Assembly: GCA_019058445.1 (NCBI GenBank)
Contig: JAHPZA010000009.1
Span: 288,001 to 352,000 of the forward strand
Length of the DNA: 64,000 nt
Direction: 5' to 3'
DNA from: Promethearchaeota archaeon
Lineage (GTDB): Archaea > Asgardarchaeota > Lokiarchaeia > Sigyniarchaeales > SOKP01
The position numbers and the translations under genes were made by a program. The notes beneath the pieces are model-generated. The model saw only the letters and a program-made list of their open reading frames with translations. It was not told the DNA's origin and ran no database searches. Below are positions 45,448 through 64,000 of the stretch, piece after piece (the first letter of the stretch is position 1; the number at the start of each line of letters is the position of its first letter).

Positions 45448-46392
45448 TTAATATTCTATTTCCATCTCTTTAAGATAGTCAAAAGCAGAATAGGCCGCAA
45501 TTACCCCTTCAGCTACCCCTGTGATGGCTTGCTTGAAAGGAGCGTCTGCAACATCTCCCGCGGCGAAAATACCGGGGATATTTGTTTCAGACTTTCGGTT
45601 GATAATGATTTCACCTTTTTCATTTGTGTTAACTCCAATTCTTTTAGCAAGATCTGAATTTGGATTTGATCCGATTTCGATAAATACCCCATCAACCTCA
45701 AATTCCTTACCATTATCAAATATTACTGCTCTTACGGAATTATCTCCTTTTATTCCCGTAATATTAGTTTTATAGATAATCTCGATTTTTTCATTATCAT
45801 ATACACGCTTTTTATTTATGGGTTCCGCTCGTATTTCTTCTCCCCGATATATAATGTATACCTTTTTCGCATTTTGGGTAAGGAACAGTGCTTCTTTTGT
45901 GGCAGAATCACTCCCACCTATGACACAAACTACTTTATCCTTAAAGAACGGACCATCACATGTAGCACAATAAGACACTCCTCTTCCCGTAAATTCCTCT
46001 TCTCCGGGGATTCCCAGTTTTCTTCTTTCTGAACCAGTGGCGATGCAAATTGTACGGGCTTTAAACTGCTGAAAAAAGGATTGAAGAACAAAATAATCCT
46101 CTTTTTGTTCAATGCTCCCTATCTCATCGGAAATATAAGAAATATTTAACGATTGCATATGTTCTCTAAACATTTCCATGAATCCTGGACCGCTTACAGA
46201 AGTAATTCCCGGATAATTCTCTATAATATGAGTTGTTGCGATTAATCCGCCAAATGTTTTTCCAACAATAAGTACGTCCATCGCGAAGCGAGCAGCATAA
46301 ATCGCACAGCCAATAGCCGTTGGACCTCCTCCTAAAACGATAATATCATAAATCTTTTCGGGATCGAACCCGAGTGAATCAGTAGGAAACAC
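45448..46392 (-). CDS. trxB: Thioredoxin reductase
   Basis: GGGP, GRGVSYCATCDG, GIFAAGD, KQAITGV. Confidence 0.95.
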   Translation of the reverse strand: MFPTDSLGFDPEKIYDIIVLGGGPTAIGCAIYAARFAMDVLIVGKTFGGLIATTHIIENYPGITSVSGPGFMEMFREHMQSLNISYISDEIGSIEQKEDYFVLQSFFQQFKARTICIATGSERRKLGIPGEEEFTGRGVSYCATCDGPFFKDKVVCVIGGSDSATKEALFLTQNAKKVYIIYRGEEIRAEPINKKRVYDNEKIEIIYKTNITGIKGDNSVRAVIFDNGKEFEVDGVFIEIGSNPNSDLAKRIGVNTNEKGEIIINRKSETNIPGIFAAGDVADAPFKQAITGVAEGVIAAYSAFDYLKEMEIEY

Positions 46393-47062
46393 GTATATTC
46401 CCTCCTATTAATGATCGTAATATTTCATTTGGCCCAACCATCCCAGTAATTGTCTTTTGATCATTGATGATTGTGTAGGGGACACCTGCGGCATCATAAT
46501 ATTGGCCGATATCTTGATTGTGGTTTATATCGATAATTACCGTTCTAATCTTCCCCTCAGAAGCTAGCGCAAACATATTCGCGATGGTAATAACTTGAGG
46601 ACAATAGGGACAAGTTTCCGTCATCATTATTTTTATTGTACTAGGCTCTATCCTGTTTAAATTCTGTTTTATTGTAGCTTCATAATAATTAGGGGCACCT
46701 GCAAAAGTAAATATTGATTGAATAAAGGGCTGGATCTCAGCACCCTGAGGAGCTGCTAAGTACCTGATTACCTCTCTTCCATTATTATCGATAAAAAGAA
46801 TTGTGGGCACACGAGAAATATCATATTGCTTCACAAACTCAGGATTATCATCTATTGACATTTCTTCAATGGTGAGCATTCCATTTGAGTTTTCCTCATA
46901 AATTCGTAATAATGTCATGAATTGACTACAATCCATACAAGCTCTTATCTTAGATCCATCTGCCTCAATCCTTTGAGAAGTAAAAACTTTTAATTTTACT
47001 GGTGTTTTTAATTTAGCCATTTCCCTCCGAATAATTTCCTTATAATGTTCATCTGAAGACAT
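46379..47062 (-). CDS. Protein disulfide oxidoreductase (two thioredoxin folds)
   Basis: CMDC and CPYC sites, RVP and GVP cis-Pro motifs. Confidence 0.9.
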   Translation of the reverse strand: MSSDEHYKEIIRREMAKLKTPVKLKVFTSQRIEADGSKIRACMDCSQFMTLLRIYEENSNGMLTIEEMSIDDNPEFVKQYDISRVPTILFIDNNGREVIRYLAAPQGAEIQPFIQSIFTFAGAPNYYEATIKQNLNRIEPSTIKIMMTETCPYCPQVITIANMFALASEGKIRTVIIDINHNQDIGQYYDAAGVPYTIINDQKTITGMVGPNEILRSLIGGNIRVSY

Positions 47063-47096
47063 TTCGAATCATACCTCCTTATTTTTAATTTATATG

Positions 47097-47789
47097 TTAA
47101 GCATACATCCCGTCAAAATCTCTTTTTCCTTTTGTGAGTTTATCTAATAAGTCTTGAGGTGAAAACATGCCATAAATATGTTCTTTTTCATTTATCATTG
47201 TATGGGGAACTCCCTGAATTTGGTATTTCATCGCAATGTCTTGATTGGCGTTAATATCAATGATATTGACTTTAATTTTTCCATCTGATAAAGTAGCAAA
47301 TAAATTTGCAATAGGTACAACTGTGGGACAATATGGGCATGTATGAGTAATAAACAATTTGATTTCTGATTTCCCGATTTTCTTAAGGTTTGTCATGATG
47401 GTGTCTTTGTAAAAAGAAACCGATCCAGAGAAATCTTGTAAACTTTTAATAAAAGGTGCTAATTCTGCTCCTGAAGGTTCTGCGGTATACCGTATGACTT
47501 CCCGATCTTTTTCATCTATAAAAAGAATAGTTGGAATTCTTACAACCTTATATTTTTCTACGATGTCAGGATTCTCCTCAGTGGAGTATTCTTCAACATC
47601 TAATTTACCATTAGAGTGCTGTTCCAATACATTCAACAAATTAAAAGTGCTATCACATGCCATACACTGTCTAATTTTTGTTCCATCGTCTTGAGTTTTG
47701 AAATCGGTAAATAATTTTAAAGAGACTCTGTCTTTCAATTTAGCCATTTCATTTATTATAAGTTTTTCATTTTGAACTATGTAGGACAT
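47097..47789 (-). CDS. Protein disulfide oxidoreductase, tandem paralog
   Basis: CMAC and CPYC sites; colinear with the neighbouring gene. Confidence 0.9.
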   Translation of the reverse strand: MSYIVQNEKLIINEMAKLKDRVSLKLFTDFKTQDDGTKIRQCMACDSTFNLLNVLEQHSNGKLDVEEYSTEENPDIVEKYKVVRIPTILFIDEKDREVIRYTAEPSGAELAPFIKSLQDFSGSVSFYKDTIMTNLKKIGKSEIKLFITHTCPYCPTVVPIANLFATLSDGKIKVNIIDINANQDIAMKYQIQGVPHTMINEKEHIYGMFSPQDLLDKLTKGKRDFDGMYA

Positions 47790-49914: not shown

Positions 49915-52590
49915 TTACAAACTCTCTTTTAAGATATTCCTTAAAACTGTATGTAAAATTCCTCCATTCTTATAATATTCGATATCAACAGGAGTATCTA
50001 ATCTCGCAACTACTTTAAAAGTTTTTTCTTGTCCATTATCAGATTTAGCAATAACAGTCAACTCCCCTTGCGGGACTATTTCTTTAATCCCTAATATTTC
50101 ATAGGTTTCATTACCTATAAGTCCTAATGAATTTGCATTCTCACCATCTTTAAATTGAAGAGGTAAAACTCCCATTCCGACAAGATTACTTCTATGAATT
50201 CTTTCAAATGATTCAGCTAACACAGCTTTAATGCCTAATAATTGTGTTCCCTTTGCTGCCCAATCCCTTGAACTGCCCATGCCATAATCACCGCCCGCAA
50301 GGATTAATAACGGAATACCTTTCTTTTCATAGTCCATAGCCGCATCATAGATAGGAACTACAGTCCCCGATATATGATTAATGGTCCATCCTCCTTCTTT
50401 ATCCACGAGTTTATTTCTAATTCTTATATTTCCAAATGTACCTCGCATCATTACTTCATGATTTCCCCTTCTTGATCCAAATGAATTGAAATCTTTCACA
50501 TCTATTCCTTTTGAAATTAGATATTGCCCTGCGGGCATATCTTCTGGAATGGCTCCAGCCGGAGAGATGTGATCAGTTGTAACACTTACCCCCAATAATG
50601 CTAGTACTTTAGAGTTTTGAATGTTCTCCAAGGGGGGTTCATGAATTGGAAAATCTAGAAAAAATGGAGGTTCACGAATATATGTTGATTTTTCATCCCA
50701 CTTATACACCTCATCTTCAGGAGGATTGAGTTGATTCCAAAGATCCCATCCTTTAAAAATTTCACTATATTCCTTAGTAAATAAATCAGGACCGACAAAT
50801 TCATTAGTTAATTTTCTGATTTCATCGGCACTTGGCCAAATATCTTTTAAATATACGGGGTTATCGCTTTTATCTACACCTAATGGATCCTGGTACAAAT
50901 TTATCGCAACCGTACCTGCCAAAGCAAATGCTACAACCAGAGGAGGAGAAGCGAGATAGTTTGCTCTTACATGAGGACTAATCCGACCTTCAAAATTTCT
51001 ATTACCACTTAACACCGCAGCGGCAACGAGATCATGTTTATTTATTTCCTTAACAAACTCATCCTTTAAAGGACCACTATTTCCAATACAAGTTGTGCAT
51101 CCATAACCCACTAAATTAAATCCTAATTGTTCGAGGTAGGACATTAGACCTGAATTTTTCATATAATCAGTTACCACTCGGGACCCTGGTGCGAAACTAG
51201 TCTTTACATGATTAGGGACTTTTAAACCTCTTTCTAATGCATTTCTAGCTAACAAACCTGCTCCGATCATTACCGAAGGATTAGATGTATTGGTGCATGA
51301 TGTAATAGCAGCAATTATTACTGCCCCATGATTTAATTTATCCCCTCTGGAAATATTATTTGTTTCATTTGGTTTATTAAACATTGTTTTCATGCTCTCT
51401 AAAAATGTTTTTTTCATTTCTGGAAGCAGTATTCTGTCTTGGGGTCGCTTCGGACCTGCTAGACTTGGTTCCACCTTACTTAAATCAACTTCTATATATT
51501 CGCTAAATTCTGGCGTAGGTGATTCTTTCGAATAAAATATTCCGACTTTCTTCAAGTACTTTTCCACTAAATCAATTTGCTCATCCTTTCTCCCACTTAA
51601 TTTTAAATAATATAGAGTCTCCTCATCAACAGGAAAAAAACCCATAGTTGCCCCATATTCGGGAGACATATTGGCAATTGTTGCTCTGTCTGCTAAACTT
51701 AACTCTTTTAAGCTAGGTCCATAAAACTCAACAAACTTTCCAACAACTCCATGTTTTCTTAGGATTTGAGTAATAGTTAACACCACATCTGTTGCTGTCA
51801 CTCCAGATTTTATTTCCCCTATTAATTTAACTCCAACAACTTCAGGTATGGGCATATAATAAGGCTGACCTAAAAGAACTGCCTCTGCTTCAATACCACC
51901 CACACCCCACCCTAAAACACCTAAACTATTAATCATAGTAGTATGAGAATCTGTTCCTACTAAAGTATCTGGAAAGGAAATATTTTCTCCATTCACTTTT
52001 CTTAAATGCACTACTGAAGCTAAATACTCTAAATTAACTTGATGGCAAATACCTCGACTAGTGGGAACTACCCTAAAATTATTAAATACGCTCTGTGCCC
52101 ATTTTAAAAATAAATATCTTTCACGATTGCGCTCCATCTCCATTTCTTCATTTTTTTGAATCGCATTTTCAGTCCCATAAAAGTCAACTTGTATAGAGTG
52201 GTCAATTACTAAATCAGCAGGTACTACAGGATTTATTCGGGAAGGATCTCCTCCAGCTCTTTCCATAGCGGAACGTAGTGCTGCTAAATCAACCATCGCT
52301 GGAACACCCGTAAAATCTTGAAGGAGAACTCGAGATGGTATATACGGAATTTCCACTACATTATCACTATTTGGTACCCAGTTTAATAGGGCGAGAACAT
52401 GATCTTTAGTAATAAGCTCATCATCTAAATTTCTTACCATATTTTCTAGCAAAATTCGGAGAGAATAAGGTAATCTACTAATGTCTCCTAAATCTAAATC
52501 TTTTAATTTTTGAATATTATATATTGCAGTAACTCCTAGCTTGGTCTCTAAATTCTGCTTTAGTTTACGTTTTAATTCAAAACCATCCAA
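49915..52590 (-). CDS. acnA: Aconitate hydratase A
   Basis: QDFTGVP, DSHTTM, SCTNTSNP, GCTTCIGNSG, GSSRDWAAKG. Confidence 0.97.
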   Translation of the reverse strand: MDGFELKRKLKQNLETKLGVTAIYNIQKLKDLDLGDISRLPYSLRILLENMVRNLDDELITKDHVLALLNWVPNSDNVVEIPYIPSRVLLQDFTGVPAMVDLAALRSAMERAGGDPSRINPVVPADLVIDHSIQVDFYGTENAIQKNEEMEMERNRERYLFLKWAQSVFNNFRVVPTSRGICHQVNLEYLASVVHLRKVNGENISFPDTLVGTDSHTTMINSLGVLGWGVGGIEAEAVLLGQPYYMPIPEVVGVKLIGEIKSGVTATDVVLTITQILRKHGVVGKFVEFYGPSLKELSLADRATIANMSPEYGATMGFFPVDEETLYYLKLSGRKDEQIDLVEKYLKKVGIFYSKESPTPEFSEYIEVDLSKVEPSLAGPKRPQDRILLPEMKKTFLESMKTMFNKPNETNNISRGDKLNHGAVIIAAITSCTNTSNPSVMIGAGLLARNALERGLKVPNHVKTSFAPGSRVVTDYMKNSGLMSYLEQLGFNLVGYGCTTCIGNSGPLKDEFVKEINKHDLVAAAVLSGNRNFEGRISPHVRANYLASPPLVVAFALAGTVAINLYQDPLGVDKSDNPVYLKDIWPSADEIRKLTNEFVGPDLFTKEYSEIFKGWDLWNQLNPPEDEVYKWDEKSTYIREPPFFLDFPIHEPPLENIQNSKVLALLGVSVTTDHISPAGAIPEDMPAGQYLISKGIDVKDFNSFGSRRGNHEVMMRGTFGNIRIRNKLVDKEGGWTINHISGTVVPIYDAAMDYEKKGIPLLILAGGDYGMGSSRDWAAKGTQLLGIKAVLAESFERIHRSNLVGMGVLPLQFKDGENANSLGLIGNETYEILGIKEIVPQGELTVIAKSDNGQEKTFKVVARLDTPVDIEYYKNGGILHTVLRNILKESL

Positions 52591-52651: not shown

Positions 52652-53923
52652 TTATCTTTCGTGCATTGTTATATAATTCTTATCAAGCTCACCTATATAA
52701 CGAAGTCGAGGTCTGATAAGTTTATTATCCGAAAGCTGTTCAATTGCATGAGCGACCCATCCTGCACTTCTTGACGCAGCAAATAAAGGGGTAAATAAGG
52801 GCGTAGGAATTCCTAAAATATGCAAGAGCCCTGCTGAATACAAGTCCACATTAGGGTAAATTTTTTTAGTGTTTATCATATATTCAGTTAATAACTCGGT
52901 CATTTCAAAGATATTATCTATTTCTCCATGTTCCGTATCATGTACCAGATCTGGAATACTTTCAATAATTTCACCTCTTTCCCAGCGTTCCCAGAAAAAT
53001 TTTGATATTTCACGCAGAATTTTTGCTCGAGGATCCCAAGTCTTATAAACTCTGTGTCCAAATCCCATAATTTTTTCTTTGTTTTCCAATTTAGTTTTTA
53101 GCCACGGCAAGACATCCTCCTTTTTTTTTATTTCTTCCAACATCATTCTTACAACTCTCTCATTTGCACCTCCATGTAATGGGCCTCTGAGAGTACCAAT
53201 TGCACTAGTAATCCCGCTGTATATATCTGATAAAGTAGAAACAGTTACTCTACATGAGAAGGTAGATGAATTAATTGAATGATCGGCATGACAGATTAAC
53301 ACATCGTCGAAGGCCTTTTCGATATCTCCACTAGGCTCTCTCCCAGTCATCATATAATAATAATTGGCAGCGTGAGAAAGTTCTTCAGATGGTTCAATTA
53401 ATGGTAAATTAGTTTGGATCCTGTGTGAAAATGCCAATACAGTTGGAATTTTTGCGATGATTCTAATACCCTTTCGGATATTTGCCTCTTCTGTGAAGAT
53501 ATAGTCGTCAGGATCGTAAAGAGATAATGCCGAAATGGATGTACGTAATAGTTCAATCCGAGTAGTGTTCCTCGGATAACTTTTAAGAATAGTCAAAATA
53601 TTGTCGGGGATATTTCGCTCTTTGATTAATTGATCTTTGAAAGAACTTAATTGATTTTTAGATGGTAGCCGACCATAAATTAAAAGATAAGCTACCTCTT
53701 CAAATGTTGAATTATTCACTAAATCCTCAAGTGAATAACCTCTGTAATATAATTTTCCGTGATCTCCATCAATGAAAGTAATCAGGCTATCATCCACGTA
53801 TATTCCTACTAATCCTTTATATGTTTTAGAGCGATCAAGTTCACATAACTGTGATTCTTCCTCCTCATAATCCTCACATACAAAAGTATCTGGTGTTTCA
53901 CATTTACTTGGATGTTGACTCAT
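52652..53923 (-). CDS. gltA: Citrate synthase family protein
   Basis: HADHSINSST, GPLHGGANE, GFGHRVYK..DPRA, PNVD. Confidence 0.92.
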   Translation of the reverse strand: MSQHPSKCETPDTFVCEDYEEEESQLCELDRSKTYKGLVGIYVDDSLITFIDGDHGKLYYRGYSLEDLVNNSTFEEVAYLLIYGRLPSKNQLSSFKDQLIKERNIPDNILTILKSYPRNTTRIELLRTSISALSLYDPDDYIFTEEANIRKGIRIIAKIPTVLAFSHRIQTNLPLIEPSEELSHAANYYYMMTGREPSGDIEKAFDDVLICHADHSINSSTFSCRVTVSTLSDIYSGITSAIGTLRGPLHGGANERVVRMMLEEIKKKEDVLPWLKTKLENKEKIMGFGHRVYKTWDPRAKILREISKFFWERWERGEIIESIPDLVHDTEHGEIDNIFEMTELLTEYMINTKKIYPNVDLYSAGLLHILGIPTPLFTPLFAASRSAGWVAHAIEQLSDNKLIRPRLRYIGELDKNYITMHER

Positions 53924-54045: not shown

Positions 54046-55098
54046 TTAAACTAAAATATCTGGTGTGATCTCTGCTAAAGATTTTACACCCGTCATTTTC
54101 ATTGCTTTGGCTAAGGTTTTTTGTAGATATTCCATTTGTAATCTAACTCCCAATATTCCAGCTCCCACAGCAGCTCTTACTAAGTCTCGTCCTATGAGTA
54201 CCGCATCAGCACCTAATGCTAACATTTTTAATACATCATAACCATTTCTAATTCCTCCATCGGCTAAAATCATAATTTTGTCTTCCACCTCAGCTACAAT
54301 ATCAGGAAGTACATCAGCAGTTCCGGGTGTGTGGTCAAGTACTCGTCCTCCATGATTAGAGACCACAATGGCAGATGCTCCTACCTCAACAGCAGCTAAT
54401 GCGTCTTCACTACACATAATCCCCTTAATAATAACAGGTAATGACGTTGATTTCACTAATTCTTCAAGGTCTTCCACACTTTTACGATAAATGGGTCTAT
54501 CGTATTTCACCATGGCATAAGAACCACACCCATCGATATCTGTTCCTACAGCAATAGCTCCTGCGACTTCTGCCTTTTTAAAAAATTTAATAATAAGATC
54601 TTGATCACGGGGTTTAACAATTTTAACACCCCACCCATTTGCTTCGGCTATGGCATCAATCCCCCAAGTATTTTCTAATGAATAGGAATAAGAGTCTCCA
54701 CGCCATCCTACTGTTTTAGCTTCTTTGCACCCAAACACAACTGATCTACAAAACCCTTTTTCAGTAATTACTTCTTCACCTCCAAAGCTATTTACTCCAG
54801 CTACACTTGCTCCCATTATCGGCATTGATAATGCTCTCCCGAAAAAAAAGAATTTCGTATCAGGTTCAAAATGAGGTCCTATTACCCTCATTTTAAGCTT
54901 AATTTTTTTTAGGGCAAGAAAATTATTATGAAAGCTTGAGCCGCTTCCAACCCCTCCAATTCCAAGAGGCTTTCCATAACTATGACCCTGACATAATCTT
55001 GTATCCAGACCGTCACAATTCCTATATACTCCACAGATGCCTTTTAATTTGTCTCGTGCTTTTTCTCTAACGTCCGGAAGTGTGATATTTCCTGACAA
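54046..55098 (-). CDS. FMN-dependent alpha-hydroxy-acid dehydrogenase/oxidase
   Basis: KGIM, VVSNHGGRVLD, DGGIR.G.DVLK.LALGA..V.IGR; N-terminal Cys cluster. Confidence 0.92.
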   Translation of the reverse strand: MSGNITLPDVREKARDKLKGICGVYRNCDGLDTRLCQGHSYGKPLGIGGVGSGSSFHNNFLALKKIKLKMRVIGPHFEPDTKFFFFGRALSMPIMGASVAGVNSFGGEEVITEKGFCRSVVFGCKEAKTVGWRGDSYSYSLENTWGIDAIAEANGWGVKIVKPRDQDLIIKFFKKAEVAGAIAVGTDIDGCGSYAMVKYDRPIYRKSVEDLEELVKSTSLPVIIKGIMCSEDALAAVEVGASAIVVSNHGGRVLDHTPGTADVLPDIVAEVEDKIMILADGGIRNGYDVLKMLALGADAVLIGRDLVRAAVGAGILGVRLQMEYLQKTLAKAMKMTGVKSLAEITPDILV

Positions 55099-55118: not shown

Positions 55119-56510
55119 TTAAACCATCTTTTTGGGATCTAATAAAGTATCTAAATCCTCATCAAATTCTAAGCCCATTTCCATTATCACTTCTTTGATA
55201 GTTTTTCCCTCATTGAATGCTTTTTGTGCGATTACCGAACATTTATCGTAGCCGATGTAAGGACTTAGATTTGTAACTAACATAATGAGTTTTTCTAATT
55301 GCGAATTTATTTGAATTTTATTAGCTTTCAAATCCAATAAACAATTTTCTATAAAAGATTGAATTGCATTACTTAAAATCTGAATTGAATCGAGAATATT
55401 GTATATTATAATAGGTTTACATATGTTAAGATCCAAAATGCTTCCATACCCCTCGCCAAAAGATACAATAGCATCATTTCCAAACACCTGTATGCATACT
55501 TGAATAAGAGCCTCCGATTGAGTTGGATTAGTTTTTCCAGGCATTATGGAGGATCCCGGCTCATTTTGTGGCAAAATCAATTCAGAGAGCCCCGCCCGAG
55601 GTCCGCTCCCCATCCATCTAATATCATTTGCCATTTTCATTAATGAAAGTGATAATTGTCTTAATGCCGCACTGGCATTAACAAGGGTATTATGAGAAGC
55701 GATACCTTCAGCTTTTACAGGGTTTAGCTTAATAGGGTACTTAGTAATTTCAGATAATTTTCTAACCACAATTTTCGCAAAATCTTTATGAGCATTAATT
55801 CCTGTCCCTAAAGCAGTTCCTCCTAATGGAATATAACACAACTCATCGAACACATATTTAAGTCTTTTTTCACTGATTTCAATCTGTTTTCTATAAACCT
55901 CAAATTCCAATGAAATTGGGATAGGTACAGCATCCTGTAGGTGAGTTCTTCCGACTTTAATAATCCCATTAAAATCTCTGATTTTCTGGTTCAAAGTTTC
56001 AATTAAGTTTTTAATTACTGGAAAAAGCTTATTACTCAATAAATGTAGAACTGATACATGCATAGTTGTAGGGATTACATCGTTAGAAGATTGCCCTTTA
56101 TTCACGTGATCATTAGGGTGAACTGGATACTTTTTACCCATAGGATGTCCCATTATTTCATTTGCTCTATTAGCCAGAACTTCATTCATATTCATATTGG
56201 TCTGGGTACCAGATCCTGTTTGATAAATGTCAATAGGAAATTGATCAAAATGCTTATTTTCTTCTAATATTTCTTTCATTGATAAAAGAAGTGCATCTCC
56301 AATTCCCTTTTCTACTAATTTTAACTCTAAGTTAGCTAACAAACATGTTTTTTTAACTTCTGCAAGTGAGCGAATAAAGATATCTGGAAATCTTTTTTTG
56401 CTAATTTGGAAATTTTGAATGGCTCTTTGTGTATTTATACCCCAGTAAACATTACTAGGAACATTCATTTCGCCTAAAACATCCTTTTCTTTACGAAATT
56501 CTTCATTCAT
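55119..56510 (-). CDS. fumC: Class II fumarate hydratase
   Basis: QTGSGTQTNMN.NE, GRTHLQDA, GSSIMPGKTNP. Confidence 0.95.
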   Translation of the reverse strand: MNEEFRKEKDVLGEMNVPSNVYWGINTQRAIQNFQISKKRFPDIFIRSLAEVKKTCLLANLELKLVEKGIGDALLLSMKEILEENKHFDQFPIDIYQTGSGTQTNMNMNEVLANRANEIMGHPMGKKYPVHPNDHVNKGQSSNDVIPTTMHVSVLHLLSNKLFPVIKNLIETLNQKIRDFNGIIKVGRTHLQDAVPIPISLEFEVYRKQIEISEKRLKYVFDELCYIPLGGTALGTGINAHKDFAKIVVRKLSEITKYPIKLNPVKAEGIASHNTLVNASAALRQLSLSLMKMANDIRWMGSGPRAGLSELILPQNEPGSSIMPGKTNPTQSEALIQVCIQVFGNDAIVSFGEGYGSILDLNICKPIIIYNILDSIQILSNAIQSFIENCLLDLKANKIQINSQLEKLIMLVTNLSPYIGYDKCSVIAQKAFNEGKTIKEVIMEMGLEFDEDLDTLLDPKKMV

Positions 56511-57267
56511 TTTTGATCCACTTATCTCTTATATCTTTTATAGCAGTTCCGGGCATAATATTTTTAGGACAAACGCGATTACAAATAAAGAACTTCTCAC
56601 AAGCGGGTACGCCATCTTCTTTTATAATCCGCGAAACTACTTTCTGTTGCTTTTCTTTAGTTATTCGTGAATCATTTATAAATCTATCTGCCTTTGCGAG
56701 TTGGGCCGGTCCCAGATAACTTGGATTTTTATTACTAACAGGGCATGCCCAGCATAAGCCACATAGTATACAATATACTAATCTCTCAATTACTTTCATT
56801 TGGGTTGGAGATTGTTTTGATTCTGGTGCTACATCGTTCCATTCTCTTACCAAATAAGGTTCAATTTCTCGATAAAATTTCCAAAAGGGTTCCATATCTA
56901 CGACTAAATCTTTAAGAACTTTCATATTGGGCAATGGTTCAATTAAAATTTCATTCTCTTTATCCCAATATGAGTGATCTCCAAATTCAAACTCAGGTAT
57001 ATTGATTGACTTTTTCGCCGTTTTAAGTGTAGATACTTGCACTCTACATGCTAGCATAGGAACTTTATCTATTGTCATCCCACAAGAGCCACATATTGCT
57101 CCTCTACACGCATATCTAAAAGCGAGTGTAGAATCAAAATGATCTTGTATATAAAACAAAGCTTCAAGGACACTCATTCCTTTAGATATTGGAAGTTCAT
57201 ACCTTTCATAACGTATATCTCCATTTCCAGGATTTCTATAAACTAATAATTTGACATTTTTTGTCAT
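56503..57267 (-). CDS. sdhB: Succinate dehydrogenase/fumarate reductase Fe-S subunit
   Basis: CRGAICGSC...C, CILCGLC..CP, C.....C..VCP; ATG at 57267 just after the sdhA stop. Confidence 0.93.
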   Translation of the reverse strand: MTKNVKLLVYRNPGNGDIRYERYELPISKGMSVLEALFYIQDHFDSTLAFRYACRGAICGSCGMTIDKVPMLACRVQVSTLKTAKKSINIPEFEFGDHSYWDKENEILIEPLPNMKVLKDLVVDMEPFWKFYREIEPYLVREWNDVAPESKQSPTQMKVIERLVYCILCGLCWACPVSNKNPSYLGPAQLAKADRFINDSRITKEKQQKVVSRIIKEDGVPACEKFFICNRVCPKNIMPGTAIKDIRDKWIKNE

Positions 57268-57268
57268 T

Positions 57269-58981
57269 TCAATAAGCACGCTCCTTTACTTCAAATATTC
57301 CCAATATAACGGGTTTTTGTTTCAGCTCTAAACCATCTTTAGTTCTATAAACTAAAGAGTGCCAAAGAAAATTCTTATCATCTCGTTCAGGATAGTCCCA
57401 GCGGTAATGTGCACCCCTACTCTCTTTCCTCATCAAAGCAGCATATGCAGTTACTTCTGCAATATCTAACATACTTCTAAGCTCCAAAGTGCGAATAAGA
57501 CCATAATTAAATTTACGATCTGATGTTGCTATGTGTACGTCTTGAAAATCTTCTTGTAATCTTTTAAGATCCTCATACGCGTATTTAAGTTCATCTTGTT
57601 TTCGAAAAACTCCAACATATTGATTCATAATTCCTCCCATGGCCTGCCTTATTACAACTGGTTTTTTACCGCTGTTATTTTCCCATTTTTTAAATAAATC
57701 TTCAGTTTCCTTTAATACTTTATTTTCAACATTTTCTCTGATAGGTGAGGATGGTCTTGAGGGTAAGCCTTTTTCCAATAACTTTCTGCCAATGGCTCTT
57801 CCGAATACTGAAGTTTCTAATAATGAATTACCCCCTAAACGATTTGCTCCATGAACAGAAAGGCATGAACATTCCCCAACAACCCATAGTCCAGACAAAT
57901 CAGTTTCTCCAAAATCTCCTTCAAATTTTGTAGCTATCCCTCCCATACTATAATGTTGACCAGGTTGTACGGGGATTGGCTCCTCAATTGGATCTATTCC
58001 CGCAAAGTAAATACTTATCTCTCGAATCCCGGGAAGCCTTTCATTTATTTTATTCGCACCTAAATGAGTAAGATCTAGATTAACGTAAGCATTTTCGAAG
58101 CCACGCCCTTCCATGACTTCAATGTCGATTGCCCTCGCTACCATATCACGAGGTGCAAGTTCCATTGCCTTTGGGGCAGTTTTGCTCATAAATCGTTCAC
58201 CTTCATTGTTATACAAAAGCCCTCCTTCTCCGCGTGCCCCCTCGGTAATTAAAATATTTGTACCATATAAAGTTGTAGGATGGAATTGTACAAATTCACA
58301 GTCTTGCATTGGAACTCCCGCTCTGAAAGCTGCGCCATTTCCATCTCCTGTATTGATAATTGCATTTGTAGAGCTTTTAAACATTCTCCCAAATCCTCCC
58401 GTGGCGAGAATAACATACAATGATCGAAATATCACAAGTTCCCCGCTGGCAATATCAAGACAGATGACGCCAGCGATTTTATTCTCAACAACAATAAGGT
58501 CAATCAAGAAATATTCATCGAAAAATTTAACACTATTTCTAACACACTGTTCATATAAGGTATGCAAAAGTGCATGTCCAGTACGATCTCCTGCGTAACA
58601 AGTACGAGGAAAGCCAGCTCCTCCGAAAGGTCTTTGGGCAATTAAGCCAGAATCTAACCGCGAAAATGGAGCTCCCATACTCTCAAATTCAATCACAATT
58701 TTTGGAGCTTCTTCACACATAAACATTACTACGTTTTGATCAGCTAAATAGTCGGAGCCTTTAACTGTATCAAACGCATGTCCTTTCGGGGTATCATCCT
58801 TGCCAACTTCTAGATTGCCTAGAGCAGCGTTAATTCCTCCTTGAGCAGCTCCTGAATGGCTACGTACAGGATATACTTTACTAATAATCGCTACATTCCA
58901 TTGAGATGATAATTCCAAACCAGCTCTTAGGCCACTAAGTCCTGCCCCTACAATAATTACATCAAATTCTTCAATATCCAT
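57269..58981 (-). CDS. sdhA: Succinate dehydrogenase/fumarate reductase flavoprotein
   Basis: RSHSGAAQGG, QFHPT, ITEGARGEG, HYSMGG, HGANRLGGNSL. Confidence 0.96.
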   Translation of the reverse strand: MDIEEFDVIIVGAGLSGLRAGLELSSQWNVAIISKVYPVRSHSGAAQGGINAALGNLEVGKDDTPKGHAFDTVKGSDYLADQNVVMFMCEEAPKIVIEFESMGAPFSRLDSGLIAQRPFGGAGFPRTCYAGDRTGHALLHTLYEQCVRNSVKFFDEYFLIDLIVVENKIAGVICLDIASGELVIFRSLYVILATGGFGRMFKSSTNAIINTGDGNGAAFRAGVPMQDCEFVQFHPTTLYGTNILITEGARGEGGLLYNNEGERFMSKTAPKAMELAPRDMVARAIDIEVMEGRGFENAYVNLDLTHLGANKINERLPGIREISIYFAGIDPIEEPIPVQPGQHYSMGGIATKFEGDFGETDLSGLWVVGECSCLSVHGANRLGGNSLLETSVFGRAIGRKLLEKGLPSRPSSPIRENVENKVLKETEDLFKKWENNSGKKPVVIRQAMGGIMNQYVGVFRKQDELKYAYEDLKRLQEDFQDVHIATSDRKFNYGLIRTLELRSMLDIAEVTAYAALMRKESRGAHYRWDYPERDDKNFLWHSLVYRTKDGLELKQKPVILGIFEVKERAY

Positions 58982-59039: not shown

Positions 59040-59897
59040 TTAGCGAAATGTTTCTAATAATTCATTAAATTTAATTTTGTCTAATTCCCTTTTGTAGAGG
59101 GGAGTGCTGTCATTATCGTAAATCCCTACATTTTCTTCGTAAGTTTTTTTATTGGGATTAAGGTATAAAATTCCTAAAGGGAATTTTCTAGTTTCTAAAG
59201 CTTTTTCAATTGCTTTATTTTGGTCATAAGGATCATGAGAATCATCTAAATAATAAGTGTTTTGTTTATACCACTCATAGGTGTTGACCCGATTGAAAGA
59301 GACGCATGGACAAAATAAATCTATCAAGGCATATCCTTTATGTTTGATAGCTTTTTTAAGGATCTCTTTAGTTTGTTCAATATCGCCCACAAAAGCACGG
59401 GCTACAAAGGAAGCATCTAATGATATAGCTATTGCCGGTGCATTAAAAGGCTGATTATATACTCCTTTTACTTGTACCTTTGTTACAAAGCCAATTTGGC
59501 TTGTAGCAGAAGCCTGTCCCTTAGTAAGTCCATATACCTGATTATTGTGTACGATATTCACAATATCCGGATTATACCGAATCGTATGTAGAAAATGATT
59601 ACCTCCCTCACTAAAAGTGCACCCGTCTCCACTAACTGCTATGACTGTAAGTTCTGGATTGGCAGCTTTGGCTCCAAGTGCATTGGATAAATATCGCCCA
59701 TGTAGTCCATTAAAACTCTGGGATTTCATGAAATGTGGAAATTTTCCAGCTTGACCAATTCCCGATATTAAAGCAAATTCATATGGTTTTATTCCTAATT
59801 CGCTAAGGGTTTCTTTCATTATTCTAAGAGCAAGATAATTTCCACAACCTGGACACCACGAAATTTCTGCATCTCGATCAAAAATATTACTTGACAT
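59040..59897 (-). CDS. korB: 2-oxoacid:ferredoxin oxidoreductase, beta subunit
   Basis: WCPGCG, LHGR, GDG...[22 protein letters not shown]. Confidence 0.93.
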
Positions 59898-59998
59898 TTT
59901 CTTAATTATTTTCTCGAATAATTAAGATATCTTTTACTAACGAATAAATAAATTCTTTCTTAATAGTTTATAATAAGACTTAGGACTATGAATTATAT

Positions 59999-61828
59999 TT
60001 AAAAGTAATCTAATGTTTTTTGCTTTCTAAGTCTTATAAAATCTTCAGTACTAAAGTTTTTTATGTTTTTTTCTTCATATTTCTTTAATAATTGTTCTAA
60101 ACTGTAAATATCCTTCTCAGCACTTAATTGAATTATATCATAGAAAGTACTTGTATGGTTTTCAGGAATTCCTATTATTTTTTCGAATAATAAAGGAGAT
60201 ACTAATCTAGTATCATCCATCTTAACCTGTTTAGTTTTATATCGAATACTTGATGGAAGCTCAAAATATAATTTATATGAATCCCACCTAGTTCCAACAA
60301 GAAGGAGCAATGAATTAGGAAGATTTCTATACTTTGAAGTTTTCCTTGCGATAAGATTCTTATGTAATTTATTTCTTTTGAAAAATCCTAAAGAAAACTC
60401 TATTAAAAGATAATCTTTTGATGCCAATAGGTAATAAAAATTACTTAGAAAATTTCTAAGCTCTGGTATCTCTTCAACTAATTTCTTGAATCTAGTTTTC
60501 AAATGTTTTAAAAAGGTATTATTGATGATTATTATTGCATCTATCCGAAAACCTTGTTGTGGATAAAAAATTTCAGTCTCAGTAAAATATATCGGAGTTA
60601 AATTTTGCCCATTAATAATATCAGGTATAAAGAATTTTAATATATCGTGATTAAGGATTCCGATTCGCTGATTGATTATTTGCCGTGAATTTAGATTTAG
60701 ATAACTTACTATATCAGAATATGATTTATTGAATCTTAATATTGAATTTAAAAACCCCCGATAATATTTTTCTACTTCTTCATAAGAGGGAGCTTCATTT
60801 TCATCTAACTCAAAAATTTCAGATAAATCAGGATAAATAATTTCTATAAAATAATTTAATAATCCTTTATACGTCGTTTGCGTGTAAATTACTTCCCAAT
60901 GAGGATCAAATCCTAGATATTTTACAAAATCATTGTAAGTATAATCTAGTCTTTTTAAAGATTTTCTAAATCCCCGAAATTCTGATTTATCTATTTGACC
61001 GCTTTTAGGTATTTCTTTAAGTCCAAAATCGTGCTTTAATCTCAAATTAGGTAAGATTTTTTCATAAAAAAACTTAATATGCTTTTCTAAATCCCAGCCA
61101 ACATAACTATACTTATATTCAATATTAGGTGTAAAACCAGCACCAATGATTATATCATTCAGATTTAAACCCAATGTATTATATGCCCTTTTCCAATAGC
61201 CGGAAAAACCTGCTTTTTCTATATCATCTTCAGAAGGACTTTTGTTAAATATTGGATAAATAACTTCTCGAAAAAAGTCAATGGCTAAACTATTATTGAT
61301 TAACCAATCGTAGCGATGAATTAAAGTTCTATATTTAATATTATGTTTTTTAAAAAATGAAATTTCTGCTTTTGAAAAATTAAATCTTTTGATAAATAGA
61401 TTTGCTTTTTTTACAATATCTCCATAATTTAACTTACGATAATCAAGAGCTCTTATGAATTTATTATTTATTATTCGCATGACCTCTCTCATAGGAGCCT
61501 CATCAGGTAATAAAGAGTATTGTTTCTGAACTAATTTAGTTAATATTTTATCTTTTAAGTATCTGGAAGCGTTAAGTATTGCATCTTTATAATATCTTGG
61601 ATATCCATTTTCATTCCAATCTAAAAAACTCCAATTTTGGCGCTTAACAACAATATGTTCTTTGCTCATAAAATCTTTCAAATGCCCATTTTTTATAAGA
61701 TCTTCAATATCAGAATTATTAAGCTCCTCGGTTTTCTCATATTTCTGTTTCTTTATAGAACAAAATCCAAAGTTCTCACATTCTAACTCTTCTTTAATGG
61801 ATTTTTCTTTTTCGTACTCTTTAGACAT
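59999..61828 (-). CDS. Repeat-containing putative endonuclease (C-terminal PD-(D/E)xK-like domain)
   Basis: Four ~55-aa helical repeats followed by E...RIDAII...LIEFS. Confidence 0.55.
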   Translation of the reverse strand: MSKEYEKEKSIKEELECENFGFCSIKKQKYEKTEELNNSDIEDLIKNGHLKDFMSKEHIVVKRQNWSFLDWNENGYPRYYKDAILNASRYLKDKILTKLVQKQYSLLPDEAPMREVMRIINNKFIRALDYRKLNYGDIVKKANLFIKRFNFSKAEISFFKKHNIKYRTLIHRYDWLINNSLAIDFFREVIYPIFNKSPSEDDIEKAGFSGYWKRAYNTLGLNLNDIIIGAGFTPNIEYKYSYVGWDLEKHIKFFYEKILPNLRLKHDFGLKEIPKSGQIDKSEFRGFRKSLKRLDYTYNDFVKYLGFDPHWEVIYTQTTYKGLLNYFIEIIYPDLSEIFELDENEAPSYEEVEKYYRGFLNSILRFNKSYSDIVSYLNLNSRQIINQRIGILNHDILKFFIPDIINGQNLTPIYFTETEIFYPQQGFRIDAIIIINNTFLKHLKTRFKKLVEEIPELRNFLSNFYYLLASKDYLLIEFSLGFFKRNKLHKNLIARKTSKYRNLPNSLLLLVGTRWDSYKLYFELPSSIRYKTKQVKMDDTRLVSPLLFEKIIGIPENHTSTFYDIIQLSAEKDIYSLEQLLKKYEEKNIKNFSTEDFIRLRKQKTLDYF

Positions 61829-62237
61829 GTTTTTATCACATCACTTTGTTATCTTGATCTTAAATAGATTAGAACGTAATATTTTAACATTTTTTTAAAA
61901 CTATTCAAATACCGAAACGAATATATAATTCTTTTTCATCATATTTAAATCTTTGATTTTTGACAGAATTTAGAAATGGATAAAAAATTATATATAAAAT
62001 AGATTTTATTAAACTACAATGGGCATGAATAGAAAAGAAATCGTTGAGGAAATTAGAATTGTACTGAATCAAAATGAAGATCTAAAGGACGTTAAATTTA
62101 AACCGCATTATAAAAGTAAATTTTTGACCTCATCCATGATATAGTAATCCTATATTTTCTATTCAAGCTTATAATATACTTAATATTTATTTCTTTATTA
62201 TTTAATTTGATAGATGTAAGACAAAAATTTCTATTAA

Positions 62238-63254
62238 ATTGGTGAAAATAAAATATCAAAAAGAAAATCAGAAATAAATTCTTTTAATTTTAAAATTATT
62301 TGCCTATTGATTTGTATTGTGAGTCTTATTATTAGTTTTATAAGTTTATATATAATTCAGGGCTTACTAGGAATAATTTTGTTTTGTATATTTTTTAACA
62401 TGTTATTAATTTTTATATATATCAATTCACGTATCATATTCCAATTTAACACCAGTTTAATAGGTGTATCATTATTTTTGATTGGACTTGCCTTTGCAAT
62501 ATCAACATTAGTTTTTAATCCATTTAACATCTTAGGAACATTATTGTTTGCTATTATTTATATGGTAATGATCGTAGTTGGAATATTATTTATTAAAGAT
62601 GGAATAAAATTCAAACAAAAAGATAAAAAATGTAATCAACTAGTTATAGAAAAAATAATTCACAAAAATAAGATGGATAAAGAAGAAGTTCAGGTTTTAG
62701 AAAATTTAGAAAGAATTCTTGGAAGGAAAATTGCGCGATTAAATAACATTAATTATGATACAATTGGAGTTCAAATTGTTGAAAATAAAATCGTAGGATT
62801 GGCCTTGTATAAATGCGAGCTAAATTATTTACCAGATTACATAGGTGAACTTAAATCACTCCAAGTATTAGGTTTGAGTTCTAATCAATTAAAAGAACTC
62901 CCTGAATCTATAGGCAGATTAAACTCTCTGAAAATATTAGATTTAGATAATAATCAGTTAAAAAAACTCCCTGAATCCATTGGTCAATTATCATCTCTAG
63001 AGGGATTATTAAGTCTAAGAAATAATCAATTAACTAAACTTCCAGAGTCCATTGGAAAATTAAAATCTCTTAAAGAATTTAATTTAAGTAAAAATAAATT
63101 AACAACTTTACCTGATGCTTTTAAAGCACTTGAATCACTTGAAATTTTAGATATACGATTTAATCCGTTATCTAAGTCAAAAAATCAAGATGATAGGACC
63201 AAAATAATATTAAAATATTTGAAAAAGCATGGTGTTAAAATTTATAAATCTTAG
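62238..63254 (+). CDS. Membrane protein (about 4 TM) with C-terminal LRRs; start uncertain (ATT 62238 or TTG 62307)
   Basis: Hydrophobic N-terminus; LPESIGxLxSLxxLxLxxNQL repeats. Confidence 0.88.
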   Translation: MGENKISKRKSEINSFNFKIICLLICIVSLIISFISLYIIQGLLGIILFCIFFNMLLIFIYINSRIIFQFNTSLIGVSLFLIGLAFAISTLVFNPFNILGTLLFAIIYMVMIVVGILFIKDGIKFKQKDKKCNQLVIEKIIHKNKMDKEEVQVLENLERILGRKIARLNNINYDTIGVQIVENKIVGLALYKCELNYLPDYIGELKSLQVLGLSSNQLKELPESIGRLNSLKILDLDNNQLKKLPESIGQLSSLEGLLSLRNNQLTKLPESIGKLKSLKEFNLSKNKLTTLPDAFKALESLEILDIRFNPLSKSKNQDDRTKIILKYLKKHGVKIYKS

Positions 63255-63301
63255 TTCTTCTTAAGGAAATTATTATTATAAATAAAAGATTTAAATTCTA
63301 C

Positions 63302-63547
63302 TTGGAAAAAGGATTATCAATAGTCTCAATCATTATTGGTGCATGTTTTGTTATATATTTCTGGATTCTAATTGGTTTAACACTGTTTTGGATTAGTTTT
63401 TCAAATTATTATATCAATTGGAATATATTTATCCCAATCTTAATTATCTTGTTCTTAGGAATAATCGCAATCATTATTGGAATAAAAGGATTAAGAAACA
63501 AATTATATAAAGAAAAGATAACTCAAATTCGGTTTTACTTCTTTTAA
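63302..63547 (+). CDS. Small 2-TM protein
   Basis: Two hydrophobic helices; stop codon overlaps the convergent korA stop. Confidence 0.55.
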   Translation: MEKGLSIVSIIIGACFVIYFWILIGLTLFWISFSNYYINWNIFIPILIILFLGIIAIIIGIKGLRNKLYKEKITQIRFYFF

Positions 63548-64000
63548 TCACCCTCAACAATTTTTTTTAATTTTTGGTGTAATTCTTCTACTGAAAACAC
63601 ATAACCACTGTACTTTAATATGTTTATATCGATCTTTACATGAGTCTCTAACTCTACTAACTTGGCAAATTGCCCTGTAGGATTGTTTTCGATTGCGATA
63701 ATCTTTTTCGCTTTATTCACATGGTCAATAATACTTGAATGTAAAGGATAGACTTGCTTAAAATGCAAAAATGCGATATCTTCTCGGTTCAGAGTTTCGA
63801 GTGCTTCTTTAATTAAATAGTAGTTGCTTCCCCATCCTATGATTAAAAATTCATAATCATCATTTCCAATGAGTTCAGGTGGTGTAGCTATCTTTTTGAT
63901 GAGTTCAAGTTTCTTATACCGTTTTTCAACTGTTTTTTTCCTAATGGTTGGATCTTCTGTAATATTTCCTTCTTCTGTATGAGTATGACTATCCGCATCT
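63544..64000 (-). CDS. korA: 2-oxoacid:ferredoxin oxidoreductase alpha subunit, 3' part (5' end outside the window)
   Basis: Manual translation H..EGNITED, IIGWGS, HFKQVYPL, IENNPTGQFA, ILKYSG. Confidence 0.92.
   Translation of the reverse strand, partial: DADSHTHTEEGNITEDPTIRKKTVEKRYKKLELIKKIATPPELIGNDDYEFLIIGWGSNYYLIKEALETLNREDIAFLHFKQVYPLHSSIIDHVNKAKKIIAIENNPTGQFAKLVELETHVKIDINILKYSGYVFSVEELHQKLKKIVEGD

Follow-up and report, generated by a model that had tools for sequence, protein, structure and literature searches.

The 64,000-nucleotide stretch of DNA analysed here, called the window in what follows (contig JAHPZA010000009.1 of a Promethearchaeota archaeon, positions 288,001 to 352,000), carries on its minus strand, at 54046..55098, a gene for a divergent FMN_dh-family protein of 350 amino acids, here named X. 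The gene lies among genes of the tricarboxylic acid (TCA) cycle and, with a likelihood that we place only somewhat above even, its product is a soluble, NAD-independent L-malate:acceptor oxidoreductase (or oxaloacetate reductase) that employs flavin mononucleotide (FMN) and an iron-sulfur (Fe-S) centre at the malate/oxaloacetate step. By its fold and catalytic core X is a member of the FMN_dh superfamily, without three of the substrate-binding residues of that family. We infer malate as the substrate from the gene context, and likewise infer the Fe-S binding, the acceptor and the direction of the reaction. Three rival explanations are less well supported.

Among the steps of the oxidative TCA cycle, the conversion of malate to oxaloacetate is thermodynamically the most difficult and, to our knowledge, only three enzyme families are known to catalyse it. 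No functional assignment of the X subfamily was found in the literature, and the databases give its members generic names only, such as ‘alpha-hydroxy-acid oxidizing protein’ or ‘putative L-lactate oxidase’. If the proposed role is correct, X would belong to a fourth family for this step, based on FMN and iron-cysteine chemistry, independent of NAD and of quinones, and present in Asgard archaea, methanogens, sulfate reducers, spirochaetes and Fibrobacterota. This would fill a gap that recurs when the metabolism of anaerobes is reconstructed, also in the Asgard models for the eukaryotic host lineage, and would redraw the electron flow of this TCA branch through rubredoxin or ferredoxin rather than NADH. 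Furthermore, sulfate reducers with a TCA cycle would have a gene on which NAD-independent malate oxidation can be tested, and X would be the first member of the glycolate oxidase family shown to have an internal iron-sulfur relay.

X and its neighbours in the host genome

In order of transcription, and all on the minus strand, the run comprises korB (2-oxoacid:ferredoxin oxidoreductase beta subunit, 59040..59897), sdhA/frdA (flavoprotein subunit, 57269..58981), sdhB/frdB (iron-sulfur subunit, 56503..57279), fumC (class II fumarase, 55119..56510), X, gltA (type II citrate or 2-methylcitrate synthase, which consumes oxaloacetate, 52652..53923) and acnA (aconitase A, 49915..52590). These assignments come from Pfam and NCBIfam matches, together with the list of open reading frames (ORFs) for sdhA; fumC was recognised by Lyase_1, FumaraseC_C and TIGR00979 (E 2e-167), and X by the ORF list, its translation and Pfam FMN_dh (215.9 bits, E 1e-63). 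The initial annotation, made from the sequence alone, had delimited the same frame and had placed it about 20 bp after fumC; the X start codon, a TTG, lies exactly 20 nt past the fumC stop (55119), and gltA starts 122 nt downstream of the end of X. The gene order that it described holds from korB to acnA, while its korA directly upstream of korB does not, an orphan ORF being found there instead. The ORF list shows no membrane-anchor genes for sdhAB in the korB-to-acnA run. The GC content of the window is low, at about 31%.

The host is a Lokiarchaeial genome of 4.6 Mb in 10 contigs, 92.6% complete. Profile searches for Ldh_1_N, Mqo, Ldh_2 and malic enzyme found none in this genome, in agreement with tblastn searches with Asgard malate dehydrogenase (MDH)/lactate dehydrogenase (LDH) and Ldh_2 queries, which gave no match. 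The lack of an NAD-dependent MDH or Mqo, first noticed for the window, therefore extends to the 4.6 Mb searched, and for malate made by FumC no other route to the oxaloacetate needed by GltA can be recognised. With regard to X itself, the only families that it matches in Pfam are FMN-barrel families, with no membership in Ldh_1, Ldh_2 or Mqo. About ten weak FMN_dh matches elsewhere in the genome were considered as paralogues of X and rejected, as they are proteins of the NMO family (nitronate monooxygenase/FabK-like, PF03060). These NMO-family paralogues, of 335-390 amino acids each (for example L002:1066-2100 and L006:991-2145), represent an unusually large expansion of that family.

Conservation of the gene order and phylogeny

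Close homologues of X, with about 70% identity, are found in metagenome-assembled genomes (MAGs) of Promethearchaeota (Loki), Thor, Heimdall, Hod and Hermod archaea. In a sample of 201 Asgard genomes, and with a threshold of at least 60% identity to X, an orthologue was present in 36, and a sister form of about 420 amino acids with 43-46% identity (X') was present in 5 more. Orthologue coordinates and a FumaraseC_C scan place X immediately after fumC in 12 Loki genomes belonging to four genera; the same fumC-X order is found in Thor contigs, and one Thor cluster also has a gene of the ICL/PEP-mutase family. Around the other copies, all flanking ORFs were blasted against the TCA proteins of the window. 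In Hodarchaeales the order is korB-X, with sdhAB or fumC-acnA 4-10 kb away, and the arrangements X-gltA-acnA and X-gltA-icd occur in one Heimdall family and in Sif, respectively. The Asgard sister form is found in clusters of the type X'-(gap)-korB-fumC-sdhA-sdhB or icd-X'-gltA-acn. The role proposed for X fits either a TCA or a methylcitrate-type cycle: the gltA product is of the citrate/2-methylcitrate synthase II type and the Thor cluster includes the ICL/PEP-mutase-family gene.

The neighbourhoods of single representative relatives were short contigs and uninformative. Beyond Asgard archaea, a scan of one genome per species yielded 80 loci, whose flanks were blasted against the same TCA proteins. 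Six Methanobacteriaceae/Methanobacteriota genomes have the order sdhA-sdhB-fumC-X', and one unclassified bacterium has sdhAB-fumC-X. The pair gltA-X occurs in Fibrobacteria and Chitinivibrionales (Fibrobacterota), acnA-gltA adjoins X in Myxococcales (Myxococcota) and Methanosarcinales, and in Treponemataceae a sucC-sdhBA-acn-fumC cluster is divergent from X. In Desulfobacteraceae, including Desulfocicer vacuolatum DSM 3385, gltA is followed at some distance by korB-X, with X directly after korB. Homologues at 42-47% identity from Clostridia, Fusobacterium, Desulfovibrionaceae, Nitrospirota and Spirochaetota had no TCA gene within 8 kb. Conserved synteny, which the initial annotation had proposed as a check, thus extends more broadly than expected; fumC, korB or gltA is the neighbour of X or its rubredoxin-fused sister in many families of Asgard archaea and also in several lineages of bacteria and methanogens.

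A maximum-likelihood tree built from 104 copies is divided by one branch, with an SH-aLRT support of 100%, into a clade of 56 loci that includes X and a sister clade of 48 loci. TCA genes lie within about 8-9 kb of 37 of the 56 loci in the clade of X, in at least 10 gene orders, and of 0/48 in the sister clade, so that all TCA-linked copies belong to the former. The 56-locus clade comprises copies from Loki, Thor, Hod, Heimdall and Sif archaea, Methanobacteriaceae, Methanosarcinales, Desulfobacteraceae, Myxococcota, Spirochaetota and Fibrobacterota. A canonical mdh gene clustered with X in its relatives, named at the outset as a finding that would speak against the malate assignment, was not encountered, as there was no MDH/LDH-like ORF among the 2715 ORFs around the 104 loci. 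No common neighbourhood theme was seen in the 48-locus sister clade. Some of its members (L082, L084, L097, L101, L117; Desulfovibrionaceae, Nitrospirota) have twin-arginine (Tat) signal peptides and are thus probably periplasmic, and others are fusions of about 750 amino acids between an ATP-grasp/LAL_C2 ligase and FMN_dh or, in one case, a HAD-FMN_dh fusion (P0175); the loci listed with these forms are L091, L093, L102, L106, L108, L110 and L111.

The position of X after korB bears on the first rival explanation, in which X would be a dehydrogenase of L-2-hydroxyglutarate, or another enzyme forming 2-oxoglutarate, that feeds the 2-oxoacid:ferredoxin oxidoreductase (KOR) or repairs 2-hydroxyglutarate arising from side reactions. 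The gap between korB and X is 0-40 nt in Hodarchaeales and Desulfobacteraceae; moreover, L-2-hydroxyglutarate is an (S)-2-hydroxy dicarboxylate too, and the basic residues R/K205 and R308, discussed below, would suit any dicarboxylate. However, no kor gene adjoins X in the sdhAB-fumC-X operons of Methanobacteriaceae or in the fumC-X pairs of Loki and Thor archaea, gltA-X or X-gltA adjacency is found at several loci, and we know of no anaerobic pathway in these lineages with L-2-hydroxyglutarate as a main-flux metabolite. This explanation is therefore regarded as quite unlikely.

Fold, active site and the cysteine-rich loop

The match of X to Pfam PF01070 (FMN_dh; cut-off 24.9 bits) is strong over residues 207-349 and weak over residues 15-145. 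The AlphaFold 2 (AF2) model, with a predicted local distance difference test (pLDDT) score of 93.9, is a (beta/alpha)8 barrel, and Foldseek relates it, with template-modelling (TM) scores of 0.75-0.79 and E values of 1e-23 to 1e-25, to 5zzp, 1tb3, 1gox and 1fcb-type chains, that is to mandelate oxidase, long-chain hydroxy-acid oxidase, glycolate oxidase (GOX) and flavocytochrome b2 (FCB2). The catalytic His/Arg motif S247-N-H249-G-G-R252 (54343..54360, minus strand) is kept in 104/104 homologues and aligns with that of the solved HAO1 and LOX structures. Residues H249, R252, K225 and D187 correspond to the GOX catalytic base His254 and to GOX Arg257, Lys230 and Asp157, and are invariant in all 104 sequences. 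X thus has in common with the (S)-2-hydroxy-acid oxidases of PF01070 (glycolate oxidase/HAO1, L-lactate oxidase, mandelate oxidase/dehydrogenase, LldD) the TIM barrel and a C-terminal half with K225, SNH249GGR252, DGG(I/V)R and GR304, and the expected chemistry, the conversion of an L-2-hydroxy acid to a 2-oxo acid on FMN, is the same. It differs from them in an N-terminal half that is barely recognisable in sequence and in its occurrence in strict anaerobes. L-malate is an (S)-2-hydroxy acid and matches the stereochemistry of the FMN_dh family.

The substrate pocket appears to be remodelled. Of the canonical substrate-binding residues, Tyr24, Tyr129 and Arg164 (GOX numbering) are not kept in X according to a profile-profile alignment, which does not use coordinates, and a second alignment gives this weaker support. 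Tyr24 aligns with L45, just after a cysteine-containing insert; the position of Tyr129 is deleted, and the loop that holds Arg164 in GOX is shorter in X and has no Arg. GOX Gln127 is replaced by K162, which is invariant in the family. Loop 4 is also shortened, and X therefore does not have the insert by which LldD and mandelate dehydrogenase bind the membrane. At R/K205 and R308 the whole TCA clade, unlike its sister, has basic residues; Y139, like R133, is invariant in the core group only, and the filter of 90%/10% for residues specific to the TCA clade retains only G42, S98 and S193.

Judged from the aligned sequences, the loss of Tyr24, Tyr129 and Arg164 and the short loop 4 argue against an ordinary lactate or glycolate oxidase, and thus bear on a second rival explanation, in which X would be a generic dehydrogenase/oxidase of L-lactate or other short-chain 2-hydroxy acids that is only loosely co-regulated with central carbon metabolism or, as a variant, part of an oxygen-exposure module that feeds rubredoxin-dependent detoxification of O2 and reactive oxygen species. 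The database names and the best solved relatives, which are lactate, glycolate and mandelate oxidases, are in line with it, as are the peroxiredoxin gene adjoining one rubredoxin-fused relative and the usual role of rubredoxin as the donor to the O2-detoxifying enzymes of anaerobes. Conversely, all NCBIfam matches fall short of their cut-offs, those to the equivalogs by a wide margin (LldD NF033901, 135.3 vs 550 bits; L-lactate oxidase TIGR02708, 116.3 vs 645.5 bits) and over the C-terminal half only, three canonical substrate-binding residues are missing, and no lactate permease or lactate-utilisation genes were seen adjoining X. Furthermore, the TCA linkage recurs in its many gene orders over many phyla and is lacking in the sister clade. 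This explanation is considered unlikely.

The insert that takes the place of Tyr24 is a cysteine-rich loop (residues 22-44), absent from canonical enzymes, and a candidate Fe-S or metal site. Its motif had been described initially as C-x5-CDG-x5-C and is exactly C22-x5-C28-D-G-x5-C36 (54991..55035, minus strand). These three cysteines vary hardly at all within the family, 40 of the 41 core-group members also have C117, and the pLDDT of the loop in the AF2 model is lower (63-72). The sister clade has C-x2-C-x2-C-x4-C in 48/48 copies; in the clade of X three of those cysteines are kept, with Tyr/Phe at the second position and two small inserts. Loss of the middle cysteine from CxxCxxC is the classic 3Fe-4S pattern, as in centre 3 of SdhB. 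Binding of an Fe-S cluster by the loop of X is plausible, and in its clade the loop may form a 3Fe-4S-type site. The nearest non-orthologous representatives, the sister form of Asgard archaea and the copies of Methanobacteriaceae and Methanosarcinales are all rubredoxin-FMN_dh fusions, and the copies of Desulfobacteraceae and Myxococcota carry a CxxC...CxxC mini-rubredoxin of 35-45 amino acids. X itself is unfused and has just the internal loop, and a stand-alone rubredoxin is encoded in the host genome 41 kb from X (G000:C9:384433-384567). The N-terminal fusions, present in many members of the clade of X, point to one-electron transfer to an iron protein.

In the mechanism proposed for X, FMN in the glycolate-oxidase-like barrel would take two electrons from an (S)-2-hydroxy acid by means of His249, Arg252, Lys225 and Asp187. 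The electrons would then leave singly through a Cys-ligated metal centre (C22, C28, C36 and perhaps C117) in the loop beside the active site, and reach a small rubredoxin- or ferredoxin-type iron protein, in analogy to the FMN-to-haem transfer in flavocytochrome b2. In vivo, malate oxidation might be pulled by an acceptor of higher potential, or oxaloacetate might be reduced by ferredoxin that has been reduced by KOR. The standard potential of rubredoxins is about -60 to +30 mV, that of oxaloacetate/malate is -166 mV and that of NAD+/NADH is -320 mV; hence, a rubredoxin-type acceptor would make malate oxidation exergonic, by the same logic as in Mqo. The reverse reaction with KOR-reduced ferredoxin would be strongly favourable and could serve a fermentative route from aspartate/oxaloacetate to succinate.

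In flavocytochrome b2, the yeast L-lactate:cytochrome c oxidoreductase, the FMN_dh domain passes single electrons to an N-terminally fused redox domain, as it would in many relatives of X, where rubredoxin stands in place of the b5-type haem domain. The differences are that the redox domain of these relatives is an iron-cysteine rather than a haem domain, that X is unfused and that its predicted substrate is malate, not lactate. Mqo (PF06039) has the role proposed for X, as an NAD-independent flavoenzyme for the malate-to-oxaloacetate step that can coexist with NAD-MDH, but has an unrelated fold, an FAD cofactor, a membrane association and a quinone acceptor. The NAD(P)-dependent MDHs of Ldh_1 (PF00056/PF02866) and Ldh_2 (PF02615) act at the same pathway step and have no sequence or fold relation to X; both families were not found in the host genome and are present in many other carriers of X.

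In a third rival explanation, the substrate of X is not a free 2-hydroxy acid, and its main role would be to feed electrons to the anchor-less SdhAB, working as a fumarate reductase, or to take them from it. The remodelled active site with a redox loop beside it would be in keeping with such a function, and so would the lack of anchor genes in the run, the existence of sdhAB-fumC-X operons and the functional diversity suggested by the ATP-grasp or HAD fusions and Tat signal peptides of distant family members. Against it stand the invariance of the catalytic His, Arg, Lys and Asp of hydroxy-acid dehydrogenation in all copies and the many X loci that have no sdhAB nearby, which make this explanation very unlikely.

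The malate:acceptor oxidoreductase assignment might also be extended to a quinone-free and NAD-free module made of X, FumC and the anchor-less SdhAB. In this module, malate would be oxidised by X and single electrons would flow through the 3Fe-4S-type centre and rubredoxin to SdhAB, which would reduce fumarate, with a net conversion of 2 malate to oxaloacetate, succinate and H2O. The sdhA-sdhB-fumC-X(rubredoxin) operon of Methanobacteriaceae would be its pure form, and the same enzyme class would lie behind the NAD(P)-independent malate dehydrogenase activity of Desulfobacter. This activity was reportedly described in the 1980s, and the literature searches yielded no accessible text on it. As a whole, this extension is speculative and rather unlikely.

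Other malate dehydrogenases and the surroundings of the run

X is the only recognisable MDH candidate in three carriers: the host genome, D. vacuolatum DSM 3385 and a Fibrobacteria MAG. No Ldh_1_N, Mqo or Ldh_2 was found in D. vacuolatum DSM 3385, and the Fibrobacteria MAG has only an LDH-type gene with Gln102. No Mqo was found in the host genome or in five other carriers. D. vacuolatum DSM 3385 is in culture and belongs to a group for which acetate oxidation via a modified citric-acid cycle has been described (PMC2702500). With regard to Ldh_1, strong Ldh_1_N matches are present in 9 of the 36 Asgard carriers. The residue at position 102, Arg in MDHs and Gln in LDHs, was taken as the specificity rule, as used in PMC13147460. 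The Ldh_1 genes of Loki carriers were thereby rejected as MDHs, since all four Loki-order carriers checked have Gln102. Among the non-carrier genomes of the family of the host, Gln102 was found in 5 of the 6 Ldh_1 genes examined, and the sixth could not be read.

The anti-correlation with mdh that the initial annotation had proposed as a check accordingly holds only in part, being seen in the three genomes named above, and several observations weigh against the assignment of X to malate. An Ldh_2-family gene is present in 30/36 Asgard carriers, so that phyletic complementarity is weak. The Ldh_2 family includes an archaeal MDH, as in M. jannaschii, and the Ldh_2 genes of Asgard carriers could therefore be MDHs. 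All five Hodarchaeales carriers (5/5) also have an Arg102-type (MDH) Ldh_1, and Ldh_1 genes occur together with Ldh_2 genes in the carriers of Treponemataceae and Methanobacteriaceae. In the family of the host, 10 of the 23 fumC-bearing genomes, including both genomes of the same genus, have neither X nor Ldh_1; an MDH gap is therefore frequent, and X does not fill it in every case. The host genome is itself 7% incomplete. In addition, TCA neighbours are lacking for nine copies of one Heimdall family, no signature of residues for binding a second carboxylate extends across the whole TCA clade (R133 being invariant in the core group only), and the korB-X adjacency would also fit a substrate linked to 2-oxoglutarate. 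Finally, full-text literature searches found neither a link between the X subfamily and malate nor biochemical data for any member.

In the family of the host, Ldh_2 genes are present in 37/40 genomes, often as tandem pairs, and were not found in the host itself. The Ldh_2 genes of three Asgard genomes (G065, G138 and G144; L146-L148) adjoin a cation-efflux transporter gene and have no metabolic context, and their context in Loki is uninformative.

Two types of fumC exist. In both genomes of the same genus, fumC belongs to another cluster, sucDC/icd/fumC/aconitase, which does not include X. The fumC of the window (55119-56510) has only 63% identity to that of its congener (L015:9318-10709), and 83% and 71-73% identity to X-linked fumC genes of other Loki and Thor lineages. 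These comparisons suggest that the kor-sdh-fumC-X-gltA-acnA block travels as a unit, and it may be laterally mobile.

Upstream of korB, an insert of about 3.6 kb (window 59900-63540, 25.8% GC) parts korA from korB. It includes a lysine- and asparagine-rich orphan ORF of 609 amino acids (59999..61828, minus strand; GC 0.258) and a leucine-rich-repeat protein of 315 amino acids on the plus strand (62307..63254). The 609-residue ORF (61828..59999) was considered as korA and rejected, as it matches no Pfam or NCBIfam family. The true korA, identified by a POR_N match (G000:C9:351937-352626, in a frame of 585 amino acids) and the ORF list, has its 3' part at 63544..64000 on the minus strand and continues past the end of the window. 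In the relatives L041 and L042 the room upstream of korB fits a contiguous korA. A close icd orthologue was not found in the host genome. Just past the window end (G000:C9:353527-358215), sucC-sucD is divergent from korA and is followed by two CCG-domain (HdrB/SdhE-like) genes, a pair that could encode the missing partner of the anchor-less SdhAB. At the other end, the TCA run and an S9 peptidase are closely followed by two tandem double-domain proteins of the thioredoxin/glutaredoxin type and a flavoprotein resembling thioredoxin reductase (window 45448-47789).

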